From positions 13,753-77,752 of the forward strand of contig DASYKN010000055.1 of NCBI GenBank assembly GCA_035995325.1: 64,000 nt of DNA, read 5' to 3'. This DNA is from Solirubrobacterales bacterium. Its GTDB lineage: Bacteria > Actinomycetota > Thermoleophilia > Solirubrobacterales > 70-9. This document shows, one piece after another, positions 6,468 to 57,624 of the stretch (positions within the stretch are counted from its first letter, which is position 1; each line of letters opens with the position of its first letter). The notes below the pieces were generated by a model, which did no database searches, had not been told where the DNA came from, and saw only the letters and a list, made by a program, of their open reading frames with translations. The position numbers and the translations under genes were made by a program.

Positions 6468-6872
6468 TCAGCCCTGAGGTTGGACGATCTCCTGGACGGC
6501 CCAGCCGTTGCCGTCCGGGTCGGCGAAGAAGACGAAGCGGCCCCAGGGGAACTCCTGCACCTCGCTCGCCTCGATCCCGCGCTCGATCAGCTCCGCCCTG
6601 GCGGCGTCGGCGTCCGCGACGACCAGCTGCAAGCCCGAGACGCTGCCCGGCGCCATCTGGTGCGCGCCGGTGGTCAGCGCGATCGAGCAGGCCGAGCCGG
6701 GCGGGGTCAGCTGCACGAAGCGCAGCTCCTCGCTCACCTGGTGGTCGTGTTCGGCGAGGAAGCCGATCCGCTCGACGTAGAAGGCCTTGGCCCGGTCCAC
6801 GTCGGAGACCGGGACCTGCACCAGCTCCAGCCGCCACTCGATCTTCGATGCCGTGTTTCCCGCATCCGCCAT
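6468..6872 (-). CDS. VOC (glyoxalase/bleomycin-resistance) family protein
   Basis: VPVSDVDRAKAFYVERIGF ... FFADPDGNGWAVQE. Confidence 0.85.
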   Translation of the reverse strand: MADAGNTASKIEWRLELVQVPVSDVDRAKAFYVERIGFLAEHDHQVSEELRFVQLTPPGSACSIALTTGAHQMAPGSVSGLQLVVADADAARAELIERGIEASEVQEFPWGRFVFFADPDGNGWAVQEIVQPQG

Positions 6873-6958
6873 TTTCAGCTCCTCTCGCCAGCCGAGCGTC
6901 CTATGATCTCTTGCTCGGTAAGTTCCTTATCTACCAAGTATCTTAGCTACTAAGAGAC

Positions 6959-7429
6959 ATGTCCGCAAGTCCGAAGAGAGAGCTGATCCAGGGGCTGATC
7001 GCCGCCTTCCGCGCCAGCGGCAACCAGGACAGCGCCTTCGAAAACCTCGCCGCCGACCGGCTCGGGGTCAACCGCACCGACCTGCACTGCTTGAACGCGA
7101 TCGAGAACGCCGGCGGCCTCAGCGCCGGGCAGCTGGCGGCCGCGGTGGGATTGACCAGCGGCGCGGTGACCGGCGTCGTCGACCGGCTCGAGCGGTCCGG
7201 CTTCGCCCGCCGCGTCGCCGACCCCGCCGACCGCCGCCGCGTCAAGGTCGAGGTGACCCCCGAGTTCTACGCCCGCGCCGAGCGGATCTGGGGCCCGCTG
7301 GCGGCGGAGTGGGAGGCCTCCCTGGCCAGCCACTTCACCGCCGCCGAACTGGCCCGTGTGACCGAGTTCCTGCGCCTCACCAACGAGGTCGGCAAACGCC
7401 ACCTCGACCGCCTGGAGCGGGAGAGCTGA
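6959..7429 (+). CDS. MarR family transcriptional regulator
   Basis: Winged-helix region LSAGQLAAAVGLTSGAVTGVVDRLERSGFARRVADPADRRRV. Confidence 0.85.
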   Translation: MSASPKRELIQGLIAAFRASGNQDSAFENLAADRLGVNRTDLHCLNAIENAGGLSAGQLAAAVGLTSGAVTGVVDRLERSGFARRVADPADRRRVKVEVTPEFYARAERIWGPLAAEWEASLASHFTAAELARVTEFLRLTNEVGKRHLDRLERES

Positions 7430-7443
7430 AGCTGGACCGCTGC

Positions 7444-7704
7444 CTAGGCCTCCTCGAGCAGGACCAGCGTCTCGGGGCGGACGCCGTCGTTCTGCATCGC
7501 CGCCGCTGCCTCATCGGTCGCCAGCATCTCCTGCAGGGCAGAGATGTCGGGCACGTCGAGGATCAACCCGACCCGGTTTGAGCCTTTCTGGTCCTTGAAG
7601 GTCCGGACCGAGATCCCGGCCGGCCCGAAGAACTCATCCCGTTTGGGCGAGCTGAGCCACCTGTCGACATCGTCCACCTCGTGAACAACAAGCACCGTTG
7701 GCAT
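7444..7704 (-). CDS. Small hypothetical protein (86 aa)
   Basis: ATG at 7704 (MPTVLVVHEV...) within ORF 7444..7767. Coding-like composition. No domain recognised. Confidence 0.5.
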   Translation of the reverse strand: MPTVLVVHEVDDVDRWLSSPKRDEFFGPAGISVRTFKDQKGSNRVGLILDVPDISALQEMLATDEAAAAMQNDGVRPETLVLLEEA

Positions 7705-7844
7705 CGTCTTTTGTCTCCCTTTTCGGCGGGAACCCACCCGCGCTGACGTTGGTTGGATGGGGAGCATCTCACCCCCGGTCGAAGCGCTCGTCCTATCGAG
7801 CGAATCAGCGGCGCCAGCGTCGCGGGCGCAGTACCGTCAGCTCG

Positions 7845-8708
7845 ATGCGGATCGCCACCTGGAACGTGAACTCGGCCAAGCAACGGCTGCCGCGCTTGCT
7901 CCCGTGGCTGGACCAGCGCAACCCGGACGTGGTCTGCCTGCAGGAGACGAAGCTCGCCGACGAAGCGCTGCTCGTCCTGCTCGGCGACGAGCTGACGAGC
8001 CGCGGTTTCGAGGTCGCCGTGCATGGAGAGGCGAGCTGGAACGGCGTCGCGATCTTCTCGCGCGTCGGCTTGGAGGACGTCGTTCCGGGCCTCGCGGGCG
8101 CTCCCGGCTTCCCGCATCCGGAGGCGCGGGCGCTGGCGGCGACCTGCGGCGGCATCCGCGTTCACTCGGTCTACGTCCCCAACGGCCGCGAGCCGGGCTC
8201 CGACCACTACGAGTACAAGCTCGCCTGGCTGGCCGCGCTGCGCGAGGCGGTGGCCGCGGGCCCGGAGGCGGTGCTTGTCTGCGGCGACGTCAACATCGCC
8301 CCGGCCGACGCGGACGTCTTCGACCCGGCGGCCTACGCGGGGCAGACGCACGTGACGCCGCCGGAGCGCGCCGCCTTGGCGGAGCTGCAGGCGCTGGGGT
8401 TGCGCGATGTCGTCCGCGACCGCTGGCCGGGCGAGCGGGTCTTCAGCTACTGGGACTACCGGGCCGGGATGTTCCACCGCGACCTGGGGATGCGGATCGA
8501 CCTGGTCCTCGCCAGCGCCCCGGTCGCCGCCCGGGTGCGCGCGGCCTGGGTCGACCGCCTGGCGCGCAAAGGCAAGGGGCCGAGCGACCACGCGCCGGTC
8601 GTCGTCGACCTCGACGAGGCCCCCGACGGGGACATCGGCCCCGTGGTGCCGCCGCCCTCGGCGCCGGTCACGAAGCGCGGCGCGGCCAAGCTGCCGCAGT
8701 CGCCCTAG
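7845..8708 (+). CDS. xthA: Exodeoxyribonuclease III
   Basis: MRIATWNVNSAKQRLPRLLPWL...VVCLQETK ... PSDHAPVVVDL. Start at the ATG at 7845 inside ORF 7698..8708. Confidence 0.9.
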   Translation: MRIATWNVNSAKQRLPRLLPWLDQRNPDVVCLQETKLADEALLVLLGDELTSRGFEVAVHGEASWNGVAIFSRVGLEDVVPGLAGAPGFPHPEARALAATCGGIRVHSVYVPNGREPGSDHYEYKLAWLAALREAVAAGPEAVLVCGDVNIAPADADVFDPAAYAGQTHVTPPERAALAELQALGLRDVVRDRWPGERVFSYWDYRAGMFHRDLGMRIDLVLASAPVAARVRAAWVDRLARKGKGPSDHAPVVVDLDEAPDGDIGPVVPPPSAPVTKRGAAKLPQSP

Positions 8709-9763
8709 CTCGCGCCGCGCTCGCGCGAGGGCTGCACCCGCTTCGGCTCCCCCGGCATCTTCGGATAGGAGGGGGGATAGGGCATGTCGGCCTCCCCCTC
8801 GGCGGCATCGCGCTCGTAGAGGTCGAGCAGCGGCTGCAGCGAGTGGGCGACGTCGTCGATCGCGGCGTGCAGGTCTCCCTCGGCGGCGAAGCGAGCGGGA
8901 AGCGTGGCGACCGTGAACTCCCCCGGCGTAACGTCCGCAAGCTCCTCCCACCGCACCGGCGCCGAGACCGGCGCGCCCGGCTTCGGCCGCACGCTGTAGG
9001 CGGAGGCGATCGTGCGGTCGCGCGCGTTCTGGTTGTAGTCGACGAAGATCCGCTCGCCGCGCTCCTCCTTCCACCACTTCGTCGTCACCTCTCCGGGCAG
9101 GCGCCGCTCCAGCTCCCGCCCGAAGGCGATCGCCGCGTGGCGGACCTCCGTGAAGCTCCAGCGCGGCTCGATCCGCACGTAGATGTGGATGCCGCGGCCA
9201 CCCGACGTCTTCGGGAAGCCGGCGTAGCCAAGCTCCTCCAGCAGCGCCCGCGCCTCCGCCGCCACCCGCACCGCGTCGCCGAAGCCGGTGCCCTCCTGCG
9301 GGTCGAGGTCGAGCCGCAGCTCGTCGGGGTGGTCGACGTCCGCCGCGCGCACCGGCCAGGGATGGAAGGTGATCGTCCCCATCTGCGCCGCCCATGCCAC
9401 CGTGGCCAGCTCGGTCGGGCAGACCTCGTCGGCGTGCCGGCCCGAGGGAAAGTCGATCCGCGCCGTCCGCACCCACTCCGGCGCCCCCCGCGGGACCCGC
9501 TTCTGGAAGAACGCGTCGCCACCGCCTTTCTCCCTGGTCGAGACGACGGTCCCGGGGTGGACGCCCTTCGGCCAGCGCTCGAGCGTCGTCGGCCGTTGCC
9601 CCACCGCCCGCATGACCCCCTCTCCGACCGCGAGGTAGTACTTGACGATGTCGAGCTTGGTCAGCGCCGGCGTCAGCTCGGTGGCGGGGAAGATCACGCG
9701 GTCCGGGCTGCTGACCCGCACCTCGCGTCCCCCCGCGTCGACGACCTCGGCTTTAGCTGCCAT
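8705..9763 (-). CDS. Stand-alone LigD-type polymerase/primase domain protein (NHEJ)
   Basis: VRVSSPDRVIFP...TKLDIVKYY...FPKTSGGRGIHIYV...DYNQNARDRTIASAYSVR are LigD-Pol signatures. There is no ligase or nuclease domain in the ORF. Start at the ATG at 9763. Confidence 0.85.
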   Translation of the reverse strand: MAAKAEVVDAGGREVRVSSPDRVIFPATELTPALTKLDIVKYYLAVGEGVMRAVGQRPTTLERWPKGVHPGTVVSTREKGGGDAFFQKRVPRGAPEWVRTARIDFPSGRHADEVCPTELATVAWAAQMGTITFHPWPVRAADVDHPDELRLDLDPQEGTGFGDAVRVAAEARALLEELGYAGFPKTSGGRGIHIYVRIEPRWSFTEVRHAAIAFGRELERRLPGEVTTKWWKEERGERIFVDYNQNARDRTIASAYSVRPKPGAPVSAPVRWEELADVTPGEFTVATLPARFAAEGDLHAAIDDVAHSLQPLLDLYERDAAEGEADMPYPPSYPKMPGEPKRVQPSRERGAS

Positions 9764-10049
9764 GTGGCTCAGTGCCGTTGCGATCGGCCCTTTGGGTGCG
9801 TAACCGGATCGGCCCCTTGGCACGAGCCAGGTCGACGACCTCTCCACGCTGAGTCACCTCGATCTGACCGGCCTCGACCAGTTCGCCGGCGGCGCCCCGC
9901 ACCAAGTCCATCAATGGCCGGAAGCCGTCGTCGCCGCCGAGCGCACGGGCAGCGTCGGAGGGACAGATCGTCTTGTCGGGACCCCGTTCCGCGAGCAGCT
10001 CGAGAATCGCCCTTCGCCCCTGCGCTCTGGTCACCGAGCCCATCGGCAC
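9753..10049 (-). CDS. DUF3253 domain protein
   Basis: ILELLAERGPDKTICPSDAARAL...RPLMDLVRGAAGELVEAGQIEVTQRGEVVD is typical of DUF3253. It overlaps the LigD-Pol start by 11 nt. Confidence 0.7.
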   Translation of the reverse strand: MPMGSVTRAQGRRAILELLAERGPDKTICPSDAARALGGDDGFRPLMDLVRGAAGELVEAGQIEVTQRGEVVDLARAKGPIRLRTQRADRNGTEPHGS

Positions 10050-10251
10050 AGGGTAGGCATCCGCGGTCGCGAGTTCTGTAGACGGGTGCCCCGCGCCTCT
10101 GCTTCCTTCATATGGAAGCCATTTCGATGACGGATCGCCAACCGCGATTCACCGGCCTCTGCAGTTGCTCGGGTAATCCAGAGTAATCGGGGTAGTAATG
10201 GGCAACGATGGACGCCACATGGAGGCGTCCACGCATCGATAGGAGATCAAA

Positions 10252-10917
10252 GTGAGAAAACGACTCATGGCCTTCGCCTGCGCGATCGCCGTCTGCACCG
10301 CCGGGGCGGCGACGGCACCGGCCGCTTCATTCGGACAGGACCCGATCCTTTTCGTCCACGGCTACCTGGAGAGCGCCTCTCTCTGGAACACGATGATTGG
10401 GCGGTTCGAAAAAGACGGCTACCCGTCGTCTTACCTGAGCGCGTACAGTTACAACACCTCGCAGTCGAACAAAGTCGACGCCGAAAAAGAAGTGAAATCG
10501 CACGTCGAAAGCCTGCTCAAAGCAACGGGCGCGACGAAGGTGGACATCATCGCCCACTCGATGGGCAGCCTCAACAGCCGCTGGTACATCAAGTTCCTCG
10601 GCGGCGAAACGAAGGTTGACGACTGGGTCTCGCTGGGCGGTCCCAACCACGGCACGGAAACGGCGAACTTCTGCTTCAGCACCTCCTGCGTGGAGATGCG
10701 GATCGGCTCCACCTTCCTCAAAGAACTGAACGCCGGGGACGAGACGCCGGGAACCGTCAACTACGGCACCTGGTGGTCGCCGTGCGACGAAGTCATCAAT
10801 CCCGACTCGAGCGTCCTGCTCACGGGAGCGACGAACACGGAAACCGCGTGCATCTCGCACACGGCCCTGACGACCGACGAAACCGTCTACAAACAGGTCC
10901 GCGAATTCGTCAAATAG
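10252..10917 (+). CDS. Secreted small lipase/esterase (Bacillus LipA-like, family I.4 type)
   Basis: Signal peptide. PILFVHGY oxyanion region and IIAHSMGS nucleophile elbow (AxSxG). GTG start with a GGAGA RBS. G+C is visibly lower than in the neighbouring genes. Confidence 0.8.
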   Translation: MRKRLMAFACAIAVCTAGAATAPAASFGQDPILFVHGYLESASLWNTMIGRFEKDGYPSSYLSAYSYNTSQSNKVDAEKEVKSHVESLLKATGATKVDIIAHSMGSLNSRWYIKFLGGETKVDDWVSLGGPNHGTETANFCFSTSCVEMRIGSTFLKELNAGDETPGTVNYGTWWSPCDEVINPDSSVLLTGATNTETACISHTALTTDETVYKQVREFVK

Positions 10918-10926
10918 GCGTTCTGG

Positions 10927-10958
10927 GCGCGATCCTGGTGGGCACCCCAGGATCGCGC
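10927..10958. terminator. Bidirectional stem-loop between convergent genes
   Basis: A perfect 12-bp inverted repeat, GCGCGATCCTGG-tgggcacc-CCAGGATCGCGC, lies between the lipase stop and the stop of the gene at 11004. Confidence 0.55.
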
Positions 10959-11003
10959 TAGGCCCTCGGTTGGCAGCGTAGGCATCCGCTGCCGCGAGCC
11001 GGC

Positions 11004-14808: not shown

Positions 14809-14923
14809 AATGAGGGATAGGACGCGATGGTTCAAGTTTCCCCTGGAGGGCGAAGTTGCCCGTTTGCAGGGTGGGTGAGTGGAGCTAGGCGGATTCGAAC
14901 CGCCGACCTCCTGGGTGCGATCC
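14809..14923. repeat. Repeat copy A: about 70 nt of flank F plus a 44-nt 3' fragment of tRNA-Ala(CGC)
   Basis: aatgagggatagga.gcgatggttcaagtttcccctggag.gcgaagttgcccgtttgcagg..gtgggtgag followed by tggagctaggcggattcgaaccgccgacctcctgggtgcgatcc. The latter is identical to 36052-36095 of the intact tRNA gene. Confidence 0.9.
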
Positions 14924-15082: not shown

Positions 15083-15363
15083 GACGCGGCGCGGTTCAAG
15101 GCCCATAAACGGAAAGCGCGACGACTCACTGCCCTAAGCCTGCAACGGCGAATTCCATGCTCCCATTGTGTTCACTAGGGACATTGCACGGTGCAAGTCC
15201 ACCGGCCGTCTAAGACGATCGATCCGACCAGTCTAAGAACCTCAGTATGGTCGAAGACCATGCTGAATCCTTCCCCGCCGATGCAATCTATGGCCGTGGA
15301 TGCTGATGGAACTCGGATGCTCGAGCCGTGACAATTTTTTCACGTCTTAGAGAGGAGAGTTGA

Positions 15364-16509
15364 GTGTCGATCAGAGCTACCTCCACGGACGAACTCGCCC
15401 GTCAGGTCGAGGCTAAGGTGGAACTGCCGTCGGGTGGCGCCATCGTCCCGGTGCCCGAGTTTGCCGCCGCCTCTTCCACCCCATGCGATTCCACCGATCT
15501 GCTGAGCTGGATGGGGTGGATGACGGCGGGGCCGCCCACCTTGGCGGCGGAGGTGCTCCGCAGCGCTGGCTACTGGGCGTGGGTTCGCTATCGATGGGCC
15601 TTGGAGGACGCACATGAAGTCGTCAGGCCGACCGCCGCCGCGCGATCGATAAGACAGCACACCCGCTCAATGTTTAGCGAGGCGGTCGGAGTCGGCACGG
15701 CTGGCTACGTCGGCTGCCTGCGCCTTGCCCCGTCGGGATCTTTGGCTGTGGTCAACTTGGACGACACGATTGACCCGCTGCTGACGAGCAGAGTCATCCG
15801 TCGGCGGTTCGGCTCAGGAAAGAGGCAACCCGACTATTTGATCATCGGGGGGCTTGACAGAGGCCGGGTGGAACTCCTAGCGATCGAGTGCAAAGGCACC
15901 GTCAAGAACGAGAGGACCGCGATCGGTCAGCTTGTTGCAGGAGTTCGGCAGGTCCTGGGGGTCGAATCCGACCTGCCCATGCGGAGGGTGGTCTTCGCCA
16001 CCTCGCTGGATCTCGATGAAAAGGAACCGGCCGTGAGGTGCCACGCAATCGAGGTCAAGGCCGAAGACAGATTCCAAGGCGGGCTCGATATCGAAGTTGC
16101 GCGTGAAGCGGTACGGGACGCCGCCTTGATCCGGGCGCTTCGCTGTGCCGGTCGCTACGACGATGCCGAGCGTACGCGCCAAGGCTATGTAGCGGACTGG
16201 TTCGAGCCCCAAGAGACCTTTCGCATCGCCGACAGGCCGATGGTCGGCCGGGGAGTCGAGCTCCTCTCCGTCGACGCCCACCTTCGGGCCGAGGTGGGTG
16301 TCGACCTTGAGCTCCTGCGAGCGCTGGCGGCTCCTCGATCTGAGCGACAGGCTCTTCTTGAGCCGCTGGAAGGTGAGATTCCAGATCAAGAGAGGGACCG
16401 GCGCATCGATAGTCCGGAGCGAGTCCAGCAGGAAACTCTGATGAGGGACGGCCTCGGCATCCGTTTCGAGCGGCGGGGCCGGGATTCCGGCGAAGAGAGA
16501 TTTCAGTAG
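15364..16509 (+). CDS. Hypothetical protein with a PD-(D/E)xK nuclease-like core
   Basis: GTG start preceded by a GAGGAG RBS. Motif KRQPDYLIIGG...VELLAIECKGT (D ... E-x-K). No other domain recognised. Confidence 0.6.
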   Translation: MSIRATSTDELARQVEAKVELPSGGAIVPVPEFAAASSTPCDSTDLLSWMGWMTAGPPTLAAEVLRSAGYWAWVRYRWALEDAHEVVRPTAAARSIRQHTRSMFSEAVGVGTAGYVGCLRLAPSGSLAVVNLDDTIDPLLTSRVIRRRFGSGKRQPDYLIIGGLDRGRVELLAIECKGTVKNERTAIGQLVAGVRQVLGVESDLPMRRVVFATSLDLDEKEPAVRCHAIEVKAEDRFQGGLDIEVAREAVRDAALIRALRCAGRYDDAERTRQGYVADWFEPQETFRIADRPMVGRGVELLSVDAHLRAEVGVDLELLRALAAPRSERQALLEPLEGEIPDQERDRRIDSPERVQQETLMRDGLGIRFERRGRDSGEERFQ

Positions 16510-16516
16510 GGACCTC

Positions 16517-17035
16517 TTGGCCGGCGCCGCCACCTACTTGGTTGAGTTCGACGGTGCGCTCGTCAGGCGCGGATTCTGGCTCTACGTACTTCAGGCCACC
16601 GTCCCGGACGGAGAGCAGTTTCTCTACGTAGGCAGGACGGGCGACAGTTCGTCCTTCAACGCGCAATCCGCCTACAACCGGCTCGGCAAACACCTTGGCG
16701 CCAACACCACGACGAACCAGATGCGCAGGCACCTGACGAAGAAGGAGTTAGAACCGGAGGCCTGCCTTTACCGCTTCGTTGCCTACGGGCCCGTCCTTGC
16801 AGAGGCAGCAACCAAAGACCAAGGCAGTCACTATCCGCTCCGGGACAAGGTGGCGGCGATGGAGAGGGAACTCGCAGTCCTACTAGAGAGAGCAGGCTAC
16901 TTGGTGCTCAACGAAGTCAGGTCAAAAAAATTGCTGGACGAGAACGCATTTCGACCCGTGGTCGCGGCCATCTCCGAGTACTTCCCCAAACTTGCCGAGT
17001 ACTGTTCTCCGCCGGAACAGGACGTGACTCTGTGA
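16517..17035 (+). CDS. Hypothetical protein with GIY-YIG nuclease-like motifs
   Basis: FWLYVLQ...EQFLYVGRTGD...YNRLGKH...MERELA...LNEV fits the GIY / YIG / R / E / N spacing. It starts 8 nt after the previous gene, so an operon is likely. Confidence 0.5.
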   Translation: MAGAATYLVEFDGALVRRGFWLYVLQATVPDGEQFLYVGRTGDSSSFNAQSAYNRLGKHLGANTTTNQMRRHLTKKELEPEACLYRFVAYGPVLAEAATKDQGSHYPLRDKVAAMERELAVLLERAGYLVLNEVRSKKLLDENAFRPVVAAISEYFPKLAEYCSPPEQDVTL

Positions 17036-17091: not shown

Positions 17092-17156
17092 GATGGTTCA
17101 AGTTTTCCCCTGGAGAGCGAAGTTGCCCGTTTTGCAGGGGGTGTGGGTGAGTGGAG
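17092..17156. repeat. Repeat copy B: 60 nt of flank F plus only the last 5-6 nt of the tRNA 3' end
   Basis: gatggttcaagttttcccctggagagcgaagttgcccgttttgcagggggtgtgggtgagtggag. After this the sequence diverges. Confidence 0.85.
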
Positions 17157-17280: not shown

Positions 17281-17811
17281 TCAAGCACCCGTTTCACGGG
17301 ACCTCGGCTCGTTGACGCACACTTGGGGAGAGATAGCTCGCGCCAGCTCGATCAGTCGCTCGACCTGCCCACATGCGCCGTGGACCACCAGCTCCTGGCC
17401 ATTGGCGGCGAGCTGAGATTGCATCTTGGTGATGACGCCAAGCGCACCGGCGTCGAGAAGCTGACAAGTCGAAAGATCCAAGACGATGCAGGGGAGCCCC
17501 GATCCCAACATGTCAGCGAGTAGGTGCTGGAGGGGACCGGTGCCGGCGAGATCCAGCTCGCCGCTCACGCTTATCTGGCGCGCCTCCGCCCAGATCACCG
17601 TTTGCTCAATATGCAGCGCCGCCGGCGCTCGCGCGGGATGATTTTGGGGAGCCAGTCGAGCCGGTGTCTCTTGGTCCTCGGGCTTTCCCTCATCTGGGAG
17701 GGAGACGAGCTCGAAGCGTCCCATTCCTCGCACGAGGCAACGGGGGCAATGTAGGGGAGGGGCCGCGGTACGGATTCGCAGCCGGCAATTGGGACATTGC
17801 GTCCGCGACAT
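17281..17811 (-). CDS. Zinc-ribbon-fused STAS domain protein (anti-sigma-factor antagonist-like)
   Basis: N-terminal CPNCRLRI...LHCPRCLV. C-terminal STAS region (ISVSGELDLAGTGPLQHLL...IVLDLSTCQLLDAGALGVI). Start at the ATG at 17811. Confidence 0.7.
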   Translation of the reverse strand: MSRTQCPNCRLRIRTAAPPLHCPRCLVRGMGRFELVSLPDEGKPEDQETPARLAPQNHPARAPAALHIEQTVIWAEARQISVSGELDLAGTGPLQHLLADMLGSGLPCIVLDLSTCQLLDAGALGVITKMQSQLAANGQELVVHGACGQVERLIELARAISPQVCVNEPRSRETGA

Positions 17812-18055
17812 GGTGAGCACACTGCACCGCCTCCGACCGCCATAGGGCCTCCGGTCAGACGCTGGAGGATCAGCGCCAACGTCGAGTTGTTTCGAATCCA
17901 ACCCCGCCTCTTTTCAGATCGCCAACGTGCGGGCCGCCCTCGCCATCCCGAGTGCACTCCCATTGGTATGACATGCGGACGCTGCTTCAAGCCCAGCGCC
18001 GCCCTCGGCTGACCCAGAGTTGACAACCCAGCGGCACCGGCCTACCAGATGCCAC

Positions 18056-29925: not shown

Positions 29926-30099
29926 ACGGGAATCGGCGTCAATCCCCGCATATCCAGGCCATTTCGGGAACTAGTTCCCGAAATGCGGGGATAGGAGGCG
30001 ATGGTTAAGTTTCCCCCTGGAGAGCGAAGCTGCCCGTTTGCAGGGGGTGTGGGTAAGTGGAGCTAGGCGGATTCGAACCGCCGACCTCCTGGGTGCGAT
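29926..30099. repeat. Repeat copy C: full flank F (132 nt) plus a 42-nt 3' fragment of tRNA-Ala(CGC)
   Basis: Near-identical by eye to 35919-36093. Contains the 24-bp perfect palindrome ATTTCGGGAACTAGTTCCCGAAAT at 29961-29984. Confidence 0.9.
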
Positions 30100-30332: not shown

Positions 30333-32690
30333 CTAAACAACGCCGTCGGACTCCCCGGTGAGCAGCCACTCCCGCAGGTCCACCAAGAAGGCGTAGTCCT
30401 CTTCGCTGATCGCGCCTCCGTGGGAGACTTCGTTTCGGATCGGGTTGAGACGCTTGATCCAGTCCAGGCGGTTTTTCCAGGTACCGGAGAGATCCTCGTC
30501 TTCGGGTCGCGTGTAGCGAGCGGCGAAGCGGCTTTCCCAGACCGCGTTGGTGCAGGACTTGATCACCTCGTAGTAGTCGACGATGTACATCATGTCCCAG
30601 CCGCCCACCTGTTCTGACGGGTCGAGGTCGAGGTTCTTCTCAATCGCCCGCTCGGCGCTCTCCTTGCGGACCTTGCGCGGGATCCCGAGGCGTTCCCAGT
30701 CTTTGCCGTGCTCGTCCTCGAGCCGCTCGCGGATGTCCTTCTTGAAGAAGGCCTCAAGGTCGCCGACGATCTCCCGGGCCTGGTTGGTGTACTGCTTGTC
30801 CTGGGCTTTTTCCCACTCATCGAGGCCCGGGGCTTTGAAGTTGGGCCGCGCCGCGCGCACCGCCTGCTGGAGCTTTCGATAGTACTTCGAGCCGGCGCCC
30901 GAGCCGTAGTTCGTGCGGTATTCGACGCCCTCCTCGCGGCTCAGCCCCTCGAGGTGGTCTACCAGCGAGTCCAGGTAGGGGCGACAGGCCTCGACCATTT
31001 CCCCGGTGCTGGTGCTGAGTGGATTAACTCCCTCGTCCTCGATCACGGTTTCGACGATGTCGCTGAGCACCCGCAGGAGCGCCTCAACCCCGTTATTCAT
31101 GAAGACGAAGCCGCCCTCGGCGCTGCCGTACTGCCATTGCGCGGGCAGCCCCTCTTTGAGGATCTCGAAGCTGGCCTCGAGGAACGGCGTTAGGAGGTCG
31201 GCGGTCGGCTGGTTGTCACCTGCGTAGAAGGTGCCCACCTTTTTCGCACCCGCTTTCGTGAAGCTGCCGATGAAGTTTCCGCGCCGCAGACCGTTGTCGA
31301 TCGCGTCGATCGTGATCGACCTCGTGTGCGTTTTGGCGTTCTCACCGATGATCATCCGGTCAAAGAGCGGCGAGGACTTCTGCTCGCCGAGGTGCTGGGC
31401 GATCCTCAGGCGCAGGGCCTTTGCGCGCTGGCGGTAGTCGTCTGAAGCCCAGAGCAGGTCCGAGTTCAGCGTGTTCCGCAGGTTCTTGGGAACCGCCTGC
31501 TGGTTCTCGTTGATCTGCATGAAGAGGCGAACCTGCTCCTCTCTCGGCAGGTCGACGAAGGCGACGACCGGGACCAGGTCGGTCTCGGTCCGGCTTGAGT
31601 CGGCGTACCCGTAGAGGCGATGCTGTCCGTCGATGACGTAGGCGGCCCGATAGGTCTGCGGCAGGTGCAGGAGCCCAATTTTCGAGGGCCCGGGCGATTT
31701 CGGAGCGAGGTCGAACTGCAGCCCACCTCTCCTTTTCCCGGTTTCGATGTTGAGGATGATCGAGTTCGGGAAGAAGCCACCCCCCTCGACGAACTCGGCG
31801 ACCTTTCTCAGGCGCGATTTCTTGATCAGCCGCTGATAGGTGGGCATCAGCGCGCTGTTGGCTTGGTTTCGGTGCAGCACGTAGGACATCTTCAGCAGGC
31901 GCGCGGGCTCGATCGCGAAGGAGAAGTAGGTGTAACCGCCCATCGAGCCGCGGATCGCCGGCACTTCCGGCTCGAGGTTCGGGATCCTCGTCCCGGCGAA
32001 CAACGCGCCGAGCAGCTGGTATTTCGCGGCGGCCCCCAGGTGCTCTGCCAGCCGCAGGTAGTACTCGACCGTGTCCTCGTCGACGTGGAAGATTTGGGCG
32101 CCCTCGACACGCTCTTTGACCTGCGCGGAGAGGGTGTAGTTGTTAGTCGCGAGCAGGAAGCGGATCTTGTGGTCGGGGTACTCTTCTTTAACCCGCCGGA
32201 CGATCCCCTGCCGCCGTCCCGAGATCGCCTCGACCTCCTTCTTGAACTGCCCGGGGCGGATCGTCTCAGAGGATTTGCACTCGATCAGCAGCACTGACTC
32301 CTCATCGGCCGCGAATACGTCGATTTGCTGCTTTGCGCTCGCCGCCGCCCCGTAGCTCAGCTTGAAAGAGCCGTCGCGATTCAGGTGCGGGAACTGCAGC
32401 TGCGCGCACATCGCCCAGACGCGGTCCTCGAAGGCTCGCTCGTGGCGCTTCTCGCGCCGCATTTTGGTCCGGATTTTCAGCTCCTTCTCGACAACCCAGC
32501 CGTCGGCTTCGTAGGCCTCGACCTTCGCCTTCGAAATCGTCTCGAAGGCGTGGGGCAGAAGCCGCTTCCGCGTCTCGCCTTTGATTTTGTTGAACGCCAG
32601 GAGGTGATCGCTGATTGCCTCCCCGGGAACCCAGATCGCCTTCGTCTCCGTTTTCGCGTTTGCCTCCGCTTCCGTCTCGGCCCTCGCCAT
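30333..32690 (-). CDS. Three-domain protein: N-terminal PD-(D/E)xK nuclease-like, central DGQHR (DndB/ParB-like) and C-terminal HEPN (Rx4H) domains
   Basis: QQIDVFAADEESVLLIECKSS (D...ExK). AYVIDGQHRLYGY and FMQINENQQAV (DGQHR/DndB signatures). C-terminal LNPIRNEVSHGG (HEPN R-x4-H). The start codon shares one base with the MTase stop (TGATG). Confidence 0.75.
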   Translation of the reverse strand: MARAETEAEANAKTETKAIWVPGEAISDHLLAFNKIKGETRKRLLPHAFETISKAKVEAYEADGWVVEKELKIRTKMRREKRHERAFEDRVWAMCAQLQFPHLNRDGSFKLSYGAAASAKQQIDVFAADEESVLLIECKSSETIRPGQFKKEVEAISGRRQGIVRRVKEEYPDHKIRFLLATNNYTLSAQVKERVEGAQIFHVDEDTVEYYLRLAEHLGAAAKYQLLGALFAGTRIPNLEPEVPAIRGSMGGYTYFSFAIEPARLLKMSYVLHRNQANSALMPTYQRLIKKSRLRKVAEFVEGGGFFPNSIILNIETGKRRGGLQFDLAPKSPGPSKIGLLHLPQTYRAAYVIDGQHRLYGYADSSRTETDLVPVVAFVDLPREEQVRLFMQINENQQAVPKNLRNTLNSDLLWASDDYRQRAKALRLRIAQHLGEQKSSPLFDRMIIGENAKTHTRSITIDAIDNGLRRGNFIGSFTKAGAKKVGTFYAGDNQPTADLLTPFLEASFEILKEGLPAQWQYGSAEGGFVFMNNGVEALLRVLSDIVETVIEDEGVNPLSTSTGEMVEACRPYLDSLVDHLEGLSREEGVEYRTNYGSGAGSKYYRKLQQAVRAARPNFKAPGLDEWEKAQDKQYTNQAREIVGDLEAFFKKDIRERLEDEHGKDWERLGIPRKVRKESAERAIEKNLDLDPSEQVGGWDMMYIVDYYEVIKSCTNAVWESRFAARYTRPEDEDLSGTWKNRLDWIKRLNPIRNEVSHGGAISEEDYAFLVDLREWLLTGESDGVV

Positions 32691-33532
32691 CAGCCGGCCG
32701 TCTCCAGGTTCGTGAAAAGAAGCTCTTTCGCGCTGCCCCGTATTGCGTTCGCTCCCCCCACCGAGTTGCGTCGGCTGGTCTTGATCACCGAGTCACCCTT
32801 GTCGAACAGCTCGATGATCGAGTCGTGCGCCGCGTTGGCGAGGATGTAGTGGGCGTCGCGCTCCTTGATCTCATCAACTAGCTTGCTGAGGCGGCGCTGG
32901 TCCTCAAAGGAAAAAAGCCGCTGGTTGTACTTCACGAATCCGTTTTCATTGTGGGCGACCGTGTAGGGGGGGTCGAGGAAGACCAAGTCCCCGGCGCCTA
33001 CCCGGTCGATGCACTTGGCGAAGTCGCTGGCTTTCAGGGTGGCCTGCTCCAGTCGAGAGGCCACCGCCCGCAGCTGCTCTGCGGTAGGGATGTGGGCGAT
33101 CCGCTCGCCGCCAAAGGGCACGTTGTAGGTCCCTGCCAGGTTGACGCGGTAGATGCCGTTGAACGAGGTGTGGTTCAGGTAGAGGAAGCGAGCGGCGCTC
33201 TCGATCAACCCGCCCGGAACCGATGCCCTGACCTTGTAGTAGGTCTCTTCATCGCGGGCGTACGCCCGGGCTTTGTTGGCGACCCGGGTCGGGTGATCCC
33301 TGATCGCCTCGAAGGCGGAGATCAGCTCCACGTTGGTATCGCTGAGGTGAGCTTTCGAGAACGGGCCCAGAGCCAGAAAAACCGAGGCGCCGCCCAGGAA
33401 GGGCTCGTGATAGGCGGCGATCTCGGTCTCGCCGACCAGCTTTCTTAGCTTCGGGATCAGCCACCGCTTGCCGCCGACCCACCGCAGCGGCGAGGCCACC
33501 GACGCAGTCGTCTCGCTCGCCCCCGTCGTCAC
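32690..33532 (-). CDS. Dam-like (D12 class) N6-adenine DNA methyltransferase
   Basis: PLRWVGGKRWL, HEPFLGGASVF (motif I) and VFLDPPYTV (motif IV, DPPY). GTG start at 33532 chosen inside ORF 32690..33637 (alternative at 33541). Confidence 0.85.
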   Translation of the reverse strand: MTTGASETTASVASPLRWVGGKRWLIPKLRKLVGETEIAAYHEPFLGGASVFLALGPFSKAHLSDTNVELISAFEAIRDHPTRVANKARAYARDEETYYKVRASVPGGLIESAARFLYLNHTSFNGIYRVNLAGTYNVPFGGERIAHIPTAEQLRAVASRLEQATLKASDFAKCIDRVGAGDLVFLDPPYTVAHNENGFVKYNQRLFSFEDQRRLSKLVDEIKERDAHYILANAAHDSIIELFDKGDSVIKTSRRNSVGGANAIRGSAKELLFTNLETAG

Positions 33533-33645
33533 CGGTGCAACCCTATCGTCGTGAGTTGTACGTCGTAAGTGCCGTCCATTACTCAGATGGAACCGCGTAC
33601 GTGGCAAACGCGGCCCCGGTGAGTGACAGGGAGGCACCGAGGATC

Positions 33646-33929: not shown

Positions 33930-34019
33930 AGGCATTCCGGCGTCAATCGTGAAGCCGTCTTTTGCGGGAGGCTTGAGTGGAGCTAGGCGGATTCGAACCG
34001 CCGACCTCCTGGGTGCGAT
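33930..34019. repeat. Repeat copy D: internally deleted flank F (about 48 nt) plus a 42-nt tRNA-Ala(CGC) 3' fragment
   Basis: ggcattccggcgtcaatcg...gaagccgtcttttgcgggaggcttgag followed by tggagctaggcggattcgaaccgccgacctcctgggtgcgat. Confidence 0.85.
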
Positions 34020-34231
34020 TCGGGTGGCGTCTAGGAACTTCCTCATCGCCCTGATGATCGGGCGCGACGACGATCCACTTCTAGCAACGCTGCCAGGGAT
34101 CGGACGCTGGTATGTGGACGTCGCTCGCCCGTGGGTCTGTTGAGACTTCCCGCAAACAGGGGGTCGTCCGCTCAGATCTAGATTATCCAGGCGCTACCTT
34201 TCGTCCTGTGACGAGGCTAAGATACGAACAT

Positions 34232-35137
34232 ATGTTCGATAAAGAGACGCTTGTGAGCACTAGGGAGCGCGCGGCGATACTCGCGCTGATGGCGCGGCGG
34301 AAAGTCGAGTGGAACCGTCTCGCCGGCGCCATCGAGGAGGCGGGAAGCGCCCTCGCCTTGCTCGGAAAGATGGACGCAAGTCAAGACGCCCGTCTGTTCG
34401 AGGTTGAAACAGCCCAGGTGACCCTGGATCAGCTCGAGGAACGCGTGATCTCCTACGAACACGAAGGCATCCGGCTGATAACCGTCCTCGATGCCAGCTA
34501 TCCGATGAATCTGCGGATGGTCCACGATCGGCCCCCGGCACTCTTTGTTCGAGGCGAGCTGAGTCCAGCCGACGAGCGCTCTGCAGCGGTGGTCGGCAGT
34601 CGCAAAGCCTCACCGGAGGGGCTCGAAAAGGCCTCCGAGATCGTGCGAGATCTCGTTGCCCATGACTACGTCGTCTTCAGTGGTCTTGCCGCTGGCATAG
34701 ATACCGCCGCTCATGAGGCCGCCTTGGCGGCGGGGGGGCGCACGGTGGCAGTCATCGGCACCGGCCTGCGACACCACTTCCCGAAGCAGAACGCGGATCT
34801 GCAGGATCGACTTTGCCGGGAGAGCGCGGTCGTTTCCCAGTTCTGGCCGGGTCAAGAACCGCGGCGCTGGACGTTTCCCCAGAGGAACGCCGTGATGTCT
34901 GGTCTGGCCCGCGCCACCATCGTCGTTGAGGCCGGTAACAAGAGTGGGGCGCGCATGCAGGCTCGGTTGGCGATCGAGCACGGACGACCTGTCTTCCTGC
35001 TGCGCTCGCTATTGCGCCATCAGTGGGCACAGACGTACGCCAGTGAGCGGCCCGGTACCTATGTCGTGGAGACGGGCGAAGAGATTTTGCGGCACCTTGA
35101 GCGGCTTTACGCCGACGAGCTCGTCCTCACCGCTTAA
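34232..35137 (+). CDS. DprA/Smf-like (SLOG superfamily) protein
   Basis: AVVGSRKASPEGLEKA...VVFSGLAAGIDTAAHEAAL...TVAVIGTGL...FPQRNAVMSGLARATIVVEAGNKSGA is the DprA Rossmann core. Start at the ATG at 34232. Confidence 0.8.
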   Translation: MFDKETLVSTRERAAILALMARRKVEWNRLAGAIEEAGSALALLGKMDASQDARLFEVETAQVTLDQLEERVISYEHEGIRLITVLDASYPMNLRMVHDRPPALFVRGELSPADERSAAVVGSRKASPEGLEKASEIVRDLVAHDYVVFSGLAAGIDTAAHEAALAAGGRTVAVIGTGLRHHFPKQNADLQDRLCRESAVVSQFWPGQEPRRWTFPQRNAVMSGLARATIVVEAGNKSGARMQARLAIEHGRPVFLLRSLLRHQWAQTYASERPGTYVVETGEEILRHLERLYADELVLTA

Positions 35138-35147
35138 TCTCTAGCCG

Positions 35148-35897
35148 ATGGCGGTTGGGGTCGATGAGGCCAGCGAGGCGTATGAGCGCGCGATGCGCAA
35201 CATTGCCACTGTCGGTCCAGGCATTTGCCGGATCTGCCGGACTTTCATAGATCCTGGATATGACACCTGCTACCCGTGCGGCTTTGAGCCCGACAACCTC
35301 GCTGCGGTGGTCCCGATCACCTACAGCGAGAACCTTGGACAGGTGCATACGGCGCTTCGCAACTACAAGGATGGCGAGAGCAACGCAATCCGCCGACATG
35401 CTGCCGTTCGGCTCGCGGCGATCCTCTGGCGCTTTCTCCGCGAGCACGAGGCCTGTGTTGCAGGTGCCGCAGGCGTGGACAAATTCGACCTCGTCACGAT
35501 CATCCCATCCAGCAGCCCACAGCGAGACGAGCACTCCGCCTTCCGTGAGTTGACCAGTTGGATCGAGCCCGCCAGCTCACGGATGCGCCGGACTCTGGAG
35601 CCGACTGGCAAGGTCGAAGAGAGAGGGTTTGATCCCGACCGTTTCAGTTCCACCACTGAGCTACCTGGCAAGTCTGTGCTGCTCCTTGACGATACCTGGA
35701 CTACTGGCGGCCATGCGCGGTCTGCCTCTTACTCTCTACTCGCAGCCGGTGCCGCCACCGTCTCGCTGGTAGTGGTCGGCCGCCATGTCAACGGTGACTA
35801 CGAACCAGCTAAAGGCAGTGGCGAGAGCTGCACCGATCTCCTCGATGCGCTTCCCGAGGACTTCGATTGGGCCACTTGCGCCGTTCACGCCACTTAG
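35148..35897 (+). CDS. ComF-like phosphoribosyltransferase-fold protein with an N-terminal zinc finger
   Basis: CRICRTFIDPGYDTCYPCG zinc finger. PRPP-loop-like VLLLDDTWTTGGHARSA. Starts 11 nt after the dprA-like stop. Confidence 0.75.
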   Translation: MAVGVDEASEAYERAMRNIATVGPGICRICRTFIDPGYDTCYPCGFEPDNLAAVVPITYSENLGQVHTALRNYKDGESNAIRRHAAVRLAAILWRFLREHEACVAGAAGVDKFDLVTIIPSSSPQRDEHSAFRELTSWIEPASSRMRRTLEPTGKVEERGFDPDRFSSTTELPGKSVLLLDDTWTTGGHARSASYSLLAAGAATVSLVVVGRHVNGDYEPAKGSGESCTDLLDALPEDFDWATCAVHAT

Positions 35898-35918: not shown

Positions 35919-36051
35919 GGCGGAATCGGCGTCAATCCCCGCGTATCCAGGCCATTTCGGGAACTAGTTCCCGAAATGAGGGGGATAGGAGGCGATGGTT
36001 CAAGTTCCCCCTGGAGAGCGAAGTTGCCCGTTTGCAGGGGGTGTCGGTGAG
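35919..36051. repeat. Flank F copy E, directly abutting the 3' end of the intact tRNA-Ala(CGC)
   Basis: Near-identical by eye to 29926-30057. Palindrome ATTTCGGGAACTAGTTCCCGAAAT at 35954-35977. Confidence 0.9.
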
Positions 36052-36124
36052 TGGAGCTAGGCGGATTCGAACCGCCGACCTCCTGGGTGCGATCCAGGCG
36101 CTCTGCCAGCTGAGCTATAGCCCC
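36052..36124 (-). tRNA. tRNA-Ala (anticodon CGC)
   Basis: The reverse complement is GGGGCTATAGCTCAGCTGGCAGAGCGCCTGGATCGCACCCAGGAGGTCGGCGGTTCGAATCCGCCTAGCTCCA. It folds as a cloverleaf with a G3:U70 pair, anticodon loop AUCGCAC and a GTTCGAATC T-loop. Confidence 0.95.
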
Positions 36125-55304: not shown

Positions 55305-56015
55305 TTGCCGGGGATCAACAGGAGCAGGTGGGAGGCGCACGACGAGCATCTGCTCCGCGTGCCCGCCGACGCCGAGGGTCAGGACAAACTCCGGCTCGAC
55401 CGCATCCGCACCGAGATCGACGCCGGCTTCGACGCCCTGCGCGACATCGACGACGGCGTCTCCGTCTTCGGCTCGGCTCGCATCCCCGAGGGCCACCGCT
55501 GGTATGAGCTCTGCCGCGAGACCGGCGCCTGCCTCGCCCAGCACGGCTTCACCGTGATCACCGGCGGCGGGCCGGGGCTGATGGAGGCTGCCAACCGTGG
55601 CGCCACCGAGGCCGGCGGCCTCTCGGTCGGCCTCAACATCGAGCTGCCGCACGAGCAGCAGCCGAACCCCTACGCCAACCGCTCGCTCGACTTCCACTAC
55701 TTCTTCGCCCGCAAGCTGATGTTCGTCCGCTACGCCCGCGCCTTCGTAATCTTCCCCGGCGGCTTCGGCACCCTCGACGAGATGTTCGAGAGCCTGACCC
55801 TGATCCAAACCCACCGGATCAAGCACTTCCCGACGATCCTCGTCGACTCCACCCACTGGAAGCCCCTGCTCGCCTGGATCGACGACACGCTCGAGGACGA
55901 CGGCATGATCGGCCCCGAGGACAAAGAGCTGCTGCTCACCGCCGACACCCCTGCCGAGATCTGCGACCACGTCGTCCGCGCCAGCGAGATGCAGAAGGAG
56001 CTGGCCGGCTCTTAG
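55305..56015 (+). CDS. LOG family protein (TIGR00730, nucleotide 5'-monophosphate nucleosidase-like)
   Basis: VSVFGSARI...ITGGGPGLMEAANRGA...PGGFGTLDEMFE. The start is uncertain: 55305 lies only 3 nt after the tRNA, and GTG at 55359 is an alternative. Confidence 0.85.
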   Translation: MPGINRSRWEAHDEHLLRVPADAEGQDKLRLDRIRTEIDAGFDALRDIDDGVSVFGSARIPEGHRWYELCRETGACLAQHGFTVITGGGPGLMEAANRGATEAGGLSVGLNIELPHEQQPNPYANRSLDFHYFFARKLMFVRYARAFVIFPGGFGTLDEMFESLTLIQTHRIKHFPTILVDSTHWKPLLAWIDDTLEDDGMIGPEDKELLLTADTPAEICDHVVRASEMQKELAGS

Positions 56016-57475
56016 TCAGGCCGAAGCCAGCTAGGCACGGCGGAGGCTTGCTCGTCCGGCTCTATTGGACTGGGTGCCGGCCTCGTTTGGTTGGTCTCCG
56101 TTGGGGCTGCCTCAGGCTGAGGCGATCCCTCTGGCGTACTCGAGATCGTGTGCCGGGGGTCTTCTTCATGCGACGACTCCTTGGAGGAGAGCCGCGGCGC
56201 TTTTGGCTGCCAGTCCCTCAGACTTTCGACAAGGTCTCCATAAAAAGCGACCACCTGGCGGCGAGTCTCGAGCACGAACGAGCGCTCCCCTCTGCCACGC
56301 TTCGTCCCCAGCGGTCGGGCAAGCGAGAGGTTGAACGCGCGTGGGTCTCGCTTCGGATCGGTGGGCGACAGCAAGGCCTTTGGTTCTTCGAGGGCGTCAG
56401 ATAGGAGGAGCGCCGTCGTCTCCTTGGTCCGTGCGAACTGGACCTCTACTCGGAGGTCTTTCGGAGCGTTCGCCAGCTGGCGAAGAATCCAGTTCACTTG
56501 AGTGAGCGGCCGTCCGTCCTTGGGCGCCGCGACCTTGACCGTGGTTCGAGTCAGGCGTGCGCGTAGATCGGCTTCGACGTCTATTGGCCCTACTGCGTCG
56601 GGGACGCGGAAAGAGCCGGTCAGCTTGCCCCCTTCTTCCAAGCTGCACAAAAGCGACTCAGTCCACTGTTCGCCCTGCTTCGTCTGCGATTGCGTGGATG
56701 AGACCTGAACGCCCAAATCCTGGCTCAACCCGAGGCAGAGGTACTCCATGAACTGCTCCCACCTATCGACTACATCCCGCACGCCCGAGTCCGCGATCCG
56801 GACCGTGCCGTCGCGAGCGGAGTTCCTAACCTGGACCCAGTTCTGGCCCATGTCCTCGAAGCCGACGGCGCCTGACCTTTCGTGCTCGAGATAGGCGATC
56901 AACTCGCCGAGGATCCAAGCCTGGTCCGGATCCTTGACGCCGCGATGCTGATGCTGCATTACTGCCTCGGTCAGGATTCGCCACCAAGAGAGGTGGCGAA
57001 GCTCAACGCTTCGAAGCTTGCGGCGATCCACCACGACCGGCACCTCCGTCGGACCGCCGCTGATCTGATTCGAGACGGTCAGAACGGCATCAAAGCCGTG
57101 ATCCCGCGCCAGATCCAGATAGCTGGATACCTGGCTGGGATCCAAGGGTGCGTTCCCGGTCTTCACCTCGACCAGGCATCTCCAGGACTTTTTTCCTCTT
57201 TCCACAACGATCGCACCGTCTGGCCTGAGGATCTTTCCGTCGGGTGCCTCGAGAGGAACCTCGGTAAACGTCGAGATCCGCCCGGCGGGAGCGCCTACGT
57301 CTCGCAGCAGCCCGCGCCCAAACTCGTCAACCGCCCCCATAACTGCGAGCAGGGAAGAGGCAGCCCGGATCTCCTGCTCGTCCTGACCGCGGATTCCGGC
57401 CACAGGGATCAACCGTGCTGGCATCCATGCCTTTGCAGCTTGCGTCATCGTTTTGCTCGGGTCTTTTTGCGGCAT
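56012..57475 (-). CDS. Hypothetical 487-aa protein: N-terminal PD-(D/E)xK nuclease-like core plus an uncharacterised C-terminal region
   Basis: ILRPDGAIVVERGKKSWRCLVEVKTG (PD ... E-x-K). The rest is unrecognised, with a P/E/S-rich tail. Visibly lower G+C. 4-nt convergent overlap with the LOG gene. Confidence 0.6.
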   Translation of the reverse strand: MPQKDPSKTMTQAAKAWMPARLIPVAGIRGQDEQEIRAASSLLAVMGAVDEFGRGLLRDVGAPAGRISTFTEVPLEAPDGKILRPDGAIVVERGKKSWRCLVEVKTGNAPLDPSQVSSYLDLARDHGFDAVLTVSNQISGGPTEVPVVVDRRKLRSVELRHLSWWRILTEAVMQHQHRGVKDPDQAWILGELIAYLEHERSGAVGFEDMGQNWVQVRNSARDGTVRIADSGVRDVVDRWEQFMEYLCLGLSQDLGVQVSSTQSQTKQGEQWTESLLCSLEEGGKLTGSFRVPDAVGPIDVEADLRARLTRTTVKVAAPKDGRPLTQVNWILRQLANAPKDLRVEVQFARTKETTALLLSDALEEPKALLSPTDPKRDPRAFNLSLARPLGTKRGRGERSFVLETRRQVVAFYGDLVESLRDWQPKAPRLSSKESSHEEDPRHTISSTPEGSPQPEAAPTETNQTRPAPSPIEPDEQASAVPSWLRPD

Positions 57476-57532
57476 ATGCCCAACCTATCGGCAGACAGGA
57501 CACCATCGTCTGCAATGAACCCGAGGTTGCAT

Positions 57533-57566
57533 CCAGAAAAGAGAACGGCCCGCATATGCGGGCCGT
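57533..57566 (-). terminator. Rho-independent-type terminator (minus strand)
   Basis: On the minus strand, ACGGCCCGCATATGCGGGCCGT (a perfect 22-nt palindrome: 9-bp GC-rich stem plus 4-nt loop) is followed by TCTCTTTTCTGG. Confidence 0.6.
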
Positions 57567-57624
57567 CTCAAATCGGGGTTGCCGCCGAACTTCACGACCC
57601 CACCCTCACGTTTTTCGATCATAG

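Follow-up and report, generated by a model that had tools for sequence, protein, structure and literature searches.

The window analyzed here, a 64-kb stretch (64,000 nt) of the genome of a Solirubrobacterales bacterium whose positions are used throughout, contains two adjacent genes, A and B, both predicted to encode nucleases. With moderate confidence, we read them as two distinct predicted nuclease genes, stacked compactly on one transcript and carried in a small insert, acquired by horizontal transfer, at the far end of a tRNA-Ala(CGC) defense array. The gene structure, the conservation of both protein families, their active-site-like residues, their genomic contexts, and the co-inheritance of the two genes are direct observations. 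The most interesting lead to emerge is the steady embedding of the B family in restriction-modification operons, rather than the A-B pair itself.

Gene A occupies positions 15364 to 16509 of the forward strand (381 amino acids [aa], GTG start, TAG stop) and is preceded by a ribosome-binding site (RBS), GAGGAG, at 15352 to 15357, 6 nt 5′ of the GTG. Start and RBS lie where an earlier annotation made from the DNA letters alone, the sequence-only reading, had placed them, and the peptide motifs that it quoted from both proteins are all present in the translations. Gene B (16517 to 17035, forward strand, 172 aa) begins with a TTG, its earliest possible start following an in-frame stop. Seven bases, and not the previously counted 8 nt, separate this TTG from the TAG of gene A. 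The module conserved at the nucleotide level comprises A, B, and a 66-nt leader (15298 to 16995, forward strand) and is 83% identical to positions 7931 to 9638 of a related locus, L001, in which AGAGGAGAGTTGAGTG at the gene A RBS is kept. A second related locus, L010, matches window positions 15499 to 17000 at 81%, with only this part present on its contig.

Measured against two related loci, the ratio of nonsynonymous to synonymous divergence (dN/dS) is 0.18 to 0.33 for A and B, showing purifying selection on both. Within the same genome pairs, A and B show comparable synonymous divergence (dS; 0.54 versus 0.47, 0.61 versus 0.76, and 0.39 versus 0.32), and we therefore conclude that the two genes were inherited jointly. 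The long antisense open reading frames (ORFs) seen here are ordinary for DNA of 60 to 70% GC. We take the forward frames as the true genes because both belong to families of homologs, have dN/dS values in the above range, and share similar dS. The reading of A and B as a single, tight transcription unit in a low-GC, repeat-bracketed insert is supported. Scans for promoters and terminators found nothing, and an Rfam scan of 14 to 18 kb gave only sub-threshold noise.

Protein A belongs to a large family. A word-indexed protein search recovered 26 relatives, one of them named, from a Solirubrobacterales metagenome-assembled genome, and a profile search of 1.84 billion representatives recovered 550 clusters at an E value of ≤1e-3 and 233 at ≤1e-10, the figure of 550 counting representative clusters at 50% identity. 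Members are typically 400 to 450 aa long. Repeating the word-indexed search with a wide A profile added almost no relatives, and a cluster look-up of ten distant relatives returned no family name. Among E. coli genomes, no relative of A was found by DNA; a related-locus search with the close A alignment returned only the already-known genome, and viral contigs gave none.

PD-(D/E)xK nucleases are marked by a D...(D/E)-x-K motif, to which the first core helix usually adds an acidic residue, on an alpha-beta-beta-beta-alpha-beta core in which the D opens the second strand and the ExK lies in the third. The corresponding residues of A, D157, E175, and K177, are invariant across its relatives. In a wide sample of 50 diverse relatives, all but three of which are 17 to 28% identical to A, the invariant positions are W71, Y76, P156, D157, E175, K177, G178, Q196, and G363, and Q189 is nearly so. 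In 21 close relatives, P156-D157, E175, K177, and Q196 are invariant, and E106 and Q189 are as well. The protein has three parts: an N-terminal alpha/beta region (residues 1 to 97) that includes an invariant WAxxRYxWA helix, a nuclease-like core in the middle, and a C terminus rich in beta structure (residues 225 to 381). The predicted core spans residues 98 to 215 (positions 15655 to 16008, forward strand), as judged from conserved residues, an AlphaFold model, and hhalign; the D157 codon is at 15832 to 15834, and the E175-C-K177 codons are at 15886 to 15894.

The AlphaFold model of A (pLDDT [predicted local distance difference test] score, 81.7; predicted template modeling [pTM] score, 0.85) has core elements H98-120, E127-131, E158-162, E170-180, H183-197, and E206-214, that is, alpha-beta-beta-beta-alpha-beta, an order that fits the PD-(D/E)xK core. 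E106 falls in helix 98-120, D157 is at the start of strand 158-162, and E175-x-K177 is in strand 170-180; Q189 and Q196 lie within helix 183-197, ahead of strand 206-214. With hhalign, the PDYL..ECKGT stretch of A was placed onto ADYVLW..IEAKKT of an HsdR alignment, built from N-terminal nuclease domains of loci retrieved in this analysis, with P = 6e-4, compared to 0.04 to 0.4 for five unrelated control alignments. Among the 50 members, the sub-threshold Pfam matches included HSDR_N in two and VRR_NUC in one, and these were the sole nuclease families among the weak matches. A Foldseek search of the Protein Data Bank (PDB) returned HincII at an E value of ∼0.6, below significance.

Several results weigh against this assignment. 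The hhalign probability for A against the HsdR nuclease motif is low, at 28%. Searches of A against Pfam, NCBIfam, PHROGs, PADLOC, and PDB sequences gave no match, the A profile matched PDB sequences only at chance level, and neither family nor fold searches recognized a modified-base reader domain in its N- or C-terminal part. Against solved structures, the best Foldseek E values were 0.07 for the A model and 0.55 for the B model, neither significant. We conclude that the A core is likely of the predicted PD-(D/E)xK type, given the conserved residues and the model. The earlier PD-(D/E)xK-like reading of the 381-aa protein thus stands as far as residues, model, and hhalign converge, but every line of fold evidence for it is below threshold.

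Members of the A family are single genes. Relatives of A lie near Mrr and Vsr (L095), near Dcm, an HATPase, and Vsr (L094), near toxin-antitoxin pairs (L096), and near Kiwa KwaA/KwaB, a DUF1156/SNF2 system, and the candidate PDC-S54 (L097). Two distant relatives are plasmid borne (L103 and L104, from Pantoea dispersa and Enterobacter mori) and annotated as hypothetical proteins; one is beside an anti-phage dCTP deaminase, and the other is beside Dcm, DUF4928, and a RES-family NADase. In L103 and L104 (8121 to 9191), the tblastn match starts 120 nt upstream of the annotated start, and the annotated starts may be too short. No methylase adjoins A, which stands solitary among defense genes at several loci. 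A defensive reading is weakened by the ordinary housekeeping neighbors found at several other A loci, for example, L002 and L099.

Relatives of B are more numerous in the word-indexed search (145), and more than 540 stretches were confirmed in metagenome contigs. Family records are Actinomycetota-like, alphaproteobacterial, verrucomicrobial (Verrucomicrobia), and from Bacteroidota. All named members are hypothetical proteins except for one JGI record, a predicted type VI secretion system component. An alignment of 44 relatives, with identity down to 37%, shows W21-L22-Y23, Y37-V38-G39, T41-G42-D43, S45-S46, R55, H59-L60, L73, G91, E116, and G127 to be invariant. The hallmark of GIY-YIG enzymes is a pair of motifs on a beta hairpin, followed by conserved Arg, Glu, and Asn. 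In B, the Tyr motifs, R55, H59, and E116 are invariant, and N132 is present in most of the 44 relatives.

B is a small, single-domain protein, and its predicted GIY-YIG-like core covers residues 19 to 132 (positions 16571 to 16912, forward strand), as drawn from the conserved residues, the model, hhalign, and Foldseek. The AlphaFold model (pLDDT, 94.6) has the element order beta-beta-alpha-alpha-beta-alpha. PF01541 (GIY-YIG) was the commonest sub-threshold Pfam match, found in 10 of the 44 members (best E value, 0.011), and in one member it spans the GIY..YIG hairpin. When aligned by hhalign with five GIY-YIG domains, each itself above the Pfam threshold, B gave P = 0.018 (controls, 0.2 to 0.53), in a register that sets YVGRTGD...RLGKH of B onto YVGSAKD...RWKRH of I-TevI. 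A Foldseek search of the B model against BFVD returned mostly homing, intron-associated, and Seg-like GIY-YIG endonucleases (E values, 1.4e-3 to 0.1; best probability, 0.99).

Other observations count against strict membership of B among the GIY-YIG nucleases. The hhalign probability is only 2.6%. Canonical GIY-YIG domains have ∼10 to 11 residues between the Tyr motifs, with the Arg ∼10 beyond the second, but in B the distance from Y23 to Y37 is 14 residues and R55 lies 18 past Y37, the latter because an invariant 8-residue TGDSS loop (T41-G42-D43-S45-S46) is inserted ahead of the Arg helix. Nothing in Pfam, NCBIfam, PHROGs, PADLOC, or PDB sequences matched B other than PRK14688 at an E value of 0.16, and the B profile matched PDB sequences only at chance level. 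Four separate weak tests nevertheless agree, and they suggest, at sub-threshold scores, that the B core is of the GIY-YIG type. The GIY-YIG reading of the 172-aa protein proposed earlier therefore survives in its invariant pattern and BFVD fold matches, qualified by those scores and by the longer spacing. The PADLOC and Foldseek checks recommended with it had a divided outcome, in that BFVD gave GIY-YIG matches for B, but PADLOC gave no match and the PDB nothing significant.

The neighbors of B cluster in a recognizable way, with HsdS next to B on its upstream side and in the same orientation, HsdM farther upstream, and HsdR on either side. The hsdS gene is immediately 5′ of B in 23 of the 43 loci with at least 1.5 kb of upstream sequence, and of the 26 B loci with both flanks, 15 contain a type I gene. 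The commonest layout, hsdM-hsdS-B-hsdR, occurs in 14 loci, and B is embedded in type I restriction-modification operons at most of loci L011 to L089, L005, L090, L091, and L102. A RefSeq example is the Thioclava plasmid NZ_CP135444, which carries hsdM, hsdS, B (one base past hsdS), and hsdR. The hsdS-hsdR slot holds prrC and tgvAB, and genes embedded there are enriched for defense (PMC12707154; PMC11411939; bioRxiv 10.1101/2024.01.29.577857); PrrC provides the precedent in type I loci (PMC12707154; bioRxiv 10.1101/2024.01.29.577857). No such slot was found in the window, in which B follows A and hsd genes are absent from the vicinity.

B also occurs in other settings. In ∼15 loci it precedes a 395-aa PLD protein with a full-length match to the PADLOC DrmC model (E value, 1.7e-111). 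On Agrobacterium pusense plasmid pC (L101, NZ_CP076850.1, positions 6995 to 10450), B is separated by 148 nt from a downstream gene for a 933-aa type IIG restriction enzyme-methyltransferase (PADLOC E value, 0), and in Shinella its partner is an ABC ATPase of the AriA/NsnB/PDC-M55A kind. Relatives of B without any such partner were also found. On a phage-like contig (L093, 2980 to 3450), a low-GC B homolog sits between tape-measure-like and other tail genes, placed in the manner of a moron or a free-standing endonuclease. Downstream of the B-containing type I operon of L090, positions 6580 to 7716 encode a 379-aa protein with a sub-threshold EVE-like region and a T5orf172/MUG113 (GIY-YIG-related) region, possibly a candidate modified-base-directed nuclease.

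From these observations we infer nuclease activity, a DNA substrate, and a defense role for A and B, the last of which is plausible from gene context. A would be an enzyme of three parts that stands alone, with a metal-dependent PD-(D/E)xK site formed by E106, D157, E175, and K177, and its N- and C-terminal regions would choose the target. It would most likely act as a type IV-like or otherwise methylase-independent restriction nuclease against foreign DNA, a comparison that we draw because A has no partner methyltransferase and its relatives stand singly among defense genes. B would be a minimal GIY-YIG-type nuclease (Y23, Y37, R55, H59, and E116) without a DNA-binding module of its own. In this lineage, B may have been put behind A, and both would then have been inherited and moved as a unit. 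The protection that they give is probably complementary and not obligately joint. The novel defense or toxin module that had been suggested for the pair is thus plausible in its defensive role, but not as a conserved A-B system.

An obligate two-component system is an alternative that we consider unlikely, though credible. A would sense or bind the target, or would itself be guarded, and B would be recruited or released as an effector or second-strand cutter; A would then stand in for the type I complex, in the way that EcoprrI holds PrrC. The tight coupling of the genes, with a 7-nt gap in the window and an 8-nt gene overlap in L001, speaks for such a system, as do an A-B adjacency kept across six contigs, the matched dS, and the nature of B, which lacks a DNA-binding module and usually sits within multisubunit nuclease operons at prrC's hsdS-hsdR position. 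Adjacency was read directly in L001 and L010, and the pairs P0002/P0028, P0003/P0033, P0004/P0030, and P0006/P0032 share contigs. The co-occurrence beyond the window that the sequence-only reading proposed to check was therefore found, and since the pair recurs in close relatives, it is not the case that the two genes never meet elsewhere. However, contigs carrying both genes are those of the window cluster and of A relatives with 76 to 80% identity. A wide A profile run over 91 B loci placed an A gene beside B solely in the window, L001, and L010. Six independent loci with A relatives of ≤69% identity have no B (L002, 69%; L094, 65%; L099, 64%; L095, L096, and L097), nor do two RefSeq plasmids, and the nearest B outside the A-B clade (62% identity) has other partners, its next genes encoding a 484-aa protein and an 858-aa PLD-like protein, in addition to the partnerless copies noted above. 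With A at only 3 of the 91 B loci and six distant A loci without B, the two families are paired in one narrow clade, and the idea of a conserved two-gene module is not supported. An extension of the obligate reading, which we regard as decidedly unlikely, is that the B family comprises widespread minimal GIY-YIG nucleases that dock on type I, type IIG, and DrmC-like machines as a latent, PrrC-like back-up effector and that B has here been rewired to A as a sensor-nuclease, giving a true two-nuclease sensor-effector system. STAS genes lie beside A in both the window and L001, but they are not homologous to each other and were rejected as a conserved partner.

Less probable again is that one or both proteins are not nucleases but a scaffold, a regulator, or another fold with convergent motifs, or that B is a Vsr-like repair accessory of a methyltransferase. 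The missing database models at threshold and the lack of a solved-structure match would fit this explanation, as would the methyltransferases that B often adjoins. Yet the invariant residues are exactly the catalytic ones, set in the expected secondary-structure elements, and separate weak tests agree on the same two folds; a Vsr-like accessory is further disfavored by the window, L098, L004, and L008, where no methyltransferase is beside B. Another explanation that is less likely than an obligate partnership makes B a selfish, homing-endonuclease-like gene that inserts beside others, so that its place behind A would be parasitic and carry no defense meaning. Its best fold matches are indeed phage homing and intron endonucleases, the family occurs in many unrelated contexts, and the L093 copy lies among phage tail genes. 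But B has no DNA-recognition domain such as homing enzymes need, no relative of it was matched among 50,697 phage records, and its place directly after hsdS is tightly conserved over many loci. Purifying selection on B and the retention of invariant catalytic residues at 37 to 50% identity across phyla likewise argue against a selfish gene. We favor, as the most economical reading, the stack of two autonomous predicted nucleases.

The setting of this stack is consistent with acquisition at a tRNA gene. The insert has 61.5% GC compared to 69.1% for the window, confirming the low-GC setting noted earlier. A low-GC unit of 2.2 kb between direct repeats of ∼57 nt holds the pair; the left repeat (14826 to 14881) equals the sequence 3′ of tRNA-Ala(CGC) at 35994 to 36050. 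The right repeat (17092 to 17149) stands alone, lacking a tRNA fragment after it, and another copy of the 57-nt flank is at ∼29990. The intact tRNA-Ala(CGC) gene is at 36051 to 36124 on the reverse strand. An att-like, exact 41-nt copy of its 3′ part is found at 14880 to 14920 (reverse strand), and other copies are at 30058 to 30098, 33978 to 34018, and 36052 to 36092, the last within the intact tRNA. Based on these four 41-nt copies and the repeated flank, we conclude that 14.9 to 36.1 kb is an insertion array at tRNA-Ala, with the A-B unit at its far end. In L001, tRNA-Ala fragments lie ∼3 to 5 kb from the A-B pair. The ORFs that we scanned between 14.8 and 36.1 kb included no integrase. An integron-type cassette was considered and rejected, given that the repeats on both sides correspond to the 3′ flank of tRNA-Ala and are not attC-like and that the scanned ORFs include no integrase.

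Other units of the array also resemble defense genes. Adjoining the intact tRNA-Ala is a ShosTA pair in a region of 61 to 63% GC, comprising ShosA (34112 to 35134, forward strand; DprA/SLOG-like; PADLOC E value, 5.6e-68) and ShosT (35148 to 35894, forward strand; PADLOC E value, 2.2e-9). On the reverse strand, positions 30336 to 32690 encode a 785-aa protein with a DndB/DpdB-like domain, and the adjoining gene (32693 to 33637) encodes a D12-class N6-adenine DNA methyltransferase (Dam-class), in a low-GC unit. The latter two may form a modification-based defense module.

Upstream of gene A, two direct copies of the octamer GTCTAAGA (15208 to 15215 and 15231 to 15238, forward strand) and a near-inverted TCTTAGA directly before the RBS (15345 to 15351) had been proposed as an operator. 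The positions of the octamers are as reported, but the evidence does not support the regulatory role. The two matches to GTCTAAGA compare with 0.48 expected in 64 kb, and two or more occurred in 10 of 100 shuffles. Both direct copies also lie upstream of 15298, where nucleotide conservation with L001 begins, and L001 has GCCTCAAA in place of TCTTAGA, with the RBS itself kept.

Just beyond the right repeat, positions 17281 to 17901 (reverse strand) encode a 206-aa protein with a Cys-rich N terminus and a C-terminal STAS domain. This is the window gene that shares no homology with its STAS-like counterpart upstream of A in L001. Elsewhere in the window, GC dips to 60 to 64%, compared to ∼70%, at ∼10000 to 11000 and ∼56000 to 58000. 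The second dip falls between tRNA-Lys (55229) and tRNA-Val (57624), and a further insertion may account for it.

A and B stand for sizeable families absent from public family libraries and defense catalogs, both of which are put among anti-phage genes by their context, and the window illustrates how a tRNA-Ala site gathers several small defense units. The context of B is specific, being the slot of type I operons that holds guardian genes such as prrC. If their activity is confirmed, the two genes would represent two new single-gene nuclease defenses and a case of small effector genes shuffled among larger immune systems. Were the sensor-effector reading true, A-B would be of a two-nuclease kind so far undescribed.

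Both families are missing from Pfam (2025), NCBIfam 20, PHROGs 4, and PADLOC 2.0, and their RefSeq members are hypothetical proteins. In PADLOC-DB 2.0, neither A nor B has a match at an E value of ≤1, and B matches no model, including the PDC candidates; PADLOC gave two chance-level matches for the 50 A relatives and none for the plasmid-borne relatives of A and B. Compared with type IV/Mrr-like nucleases and the HsdR N-terminal domain, A has its D...ExK in the same strands as judged from its model, and the hhalign register with the HsdR nuclease falls on the catalytic D..EAK; neither Mrr_cat, HSDR_N, nor any other curated family matches A significantly. Like stand-alone, methylase-free PD-(D/E)xK nucleases, it is a single gene that lies in defense islands and has no methyltransferase. 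Type IV enzymes combine a nuclease with a modified-base reader (SRA, EVE/PUA, YTH, winged helix, DUF262, and similar domains) and have no cognate methylase. A differs from them in having no recognized reader in either terminal part.

B shares with GIY-YIG domains (I-TevI, Seg, the UvrC N terminus, Slx1/YhbQ, and Eco29kI-type enzymes) the Tyr-Tyr hairpin, the Arg..His helix, and the later Glu. Its predicted element order, beta-beta-alpha-(alpha)-beta-alpha, is like theirs, and its YVGxTxD...RxxxH aligns with I-TevI. It differs from them in its score below the Pfam threshold, its Tyr spacing of 14 versus ∼11 residues, and its inserted TGDSS loop, and, among GIY-YIG enzymes, in having no attached DNA-binding domain and in the location of its family mostly inside restriction-modification operons. 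PrrC in EcoprrI, TgvAB in Vibrio VPI-2, and the “guilt-by-embedding” candidates of Payne et al. occupy the same hsdS-hsdR slot as the B family. Neither PrrC (an ABC ATPase with an anticodon nuclease) nor GmrSD is related to B in sequence, and unlike the embedded guardians, B is not flanked by restriction-modification genes in the window. The insert departs from tRNA-linked defense islands in that the scanned ORFs include no integrase, the repeat runs 57 nt past the tRNA end, and the right copy has no tRNA fragment. Like such islands, it is low in GC, bracketed by repeats, marked by tRNA 3′ copies at its junctions, and close to units with ShosTA and with a methylase gene beside a DpdB-like one. 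The folds and the logic of these genes, as defense-island nucleases and embedded genes, are already known.

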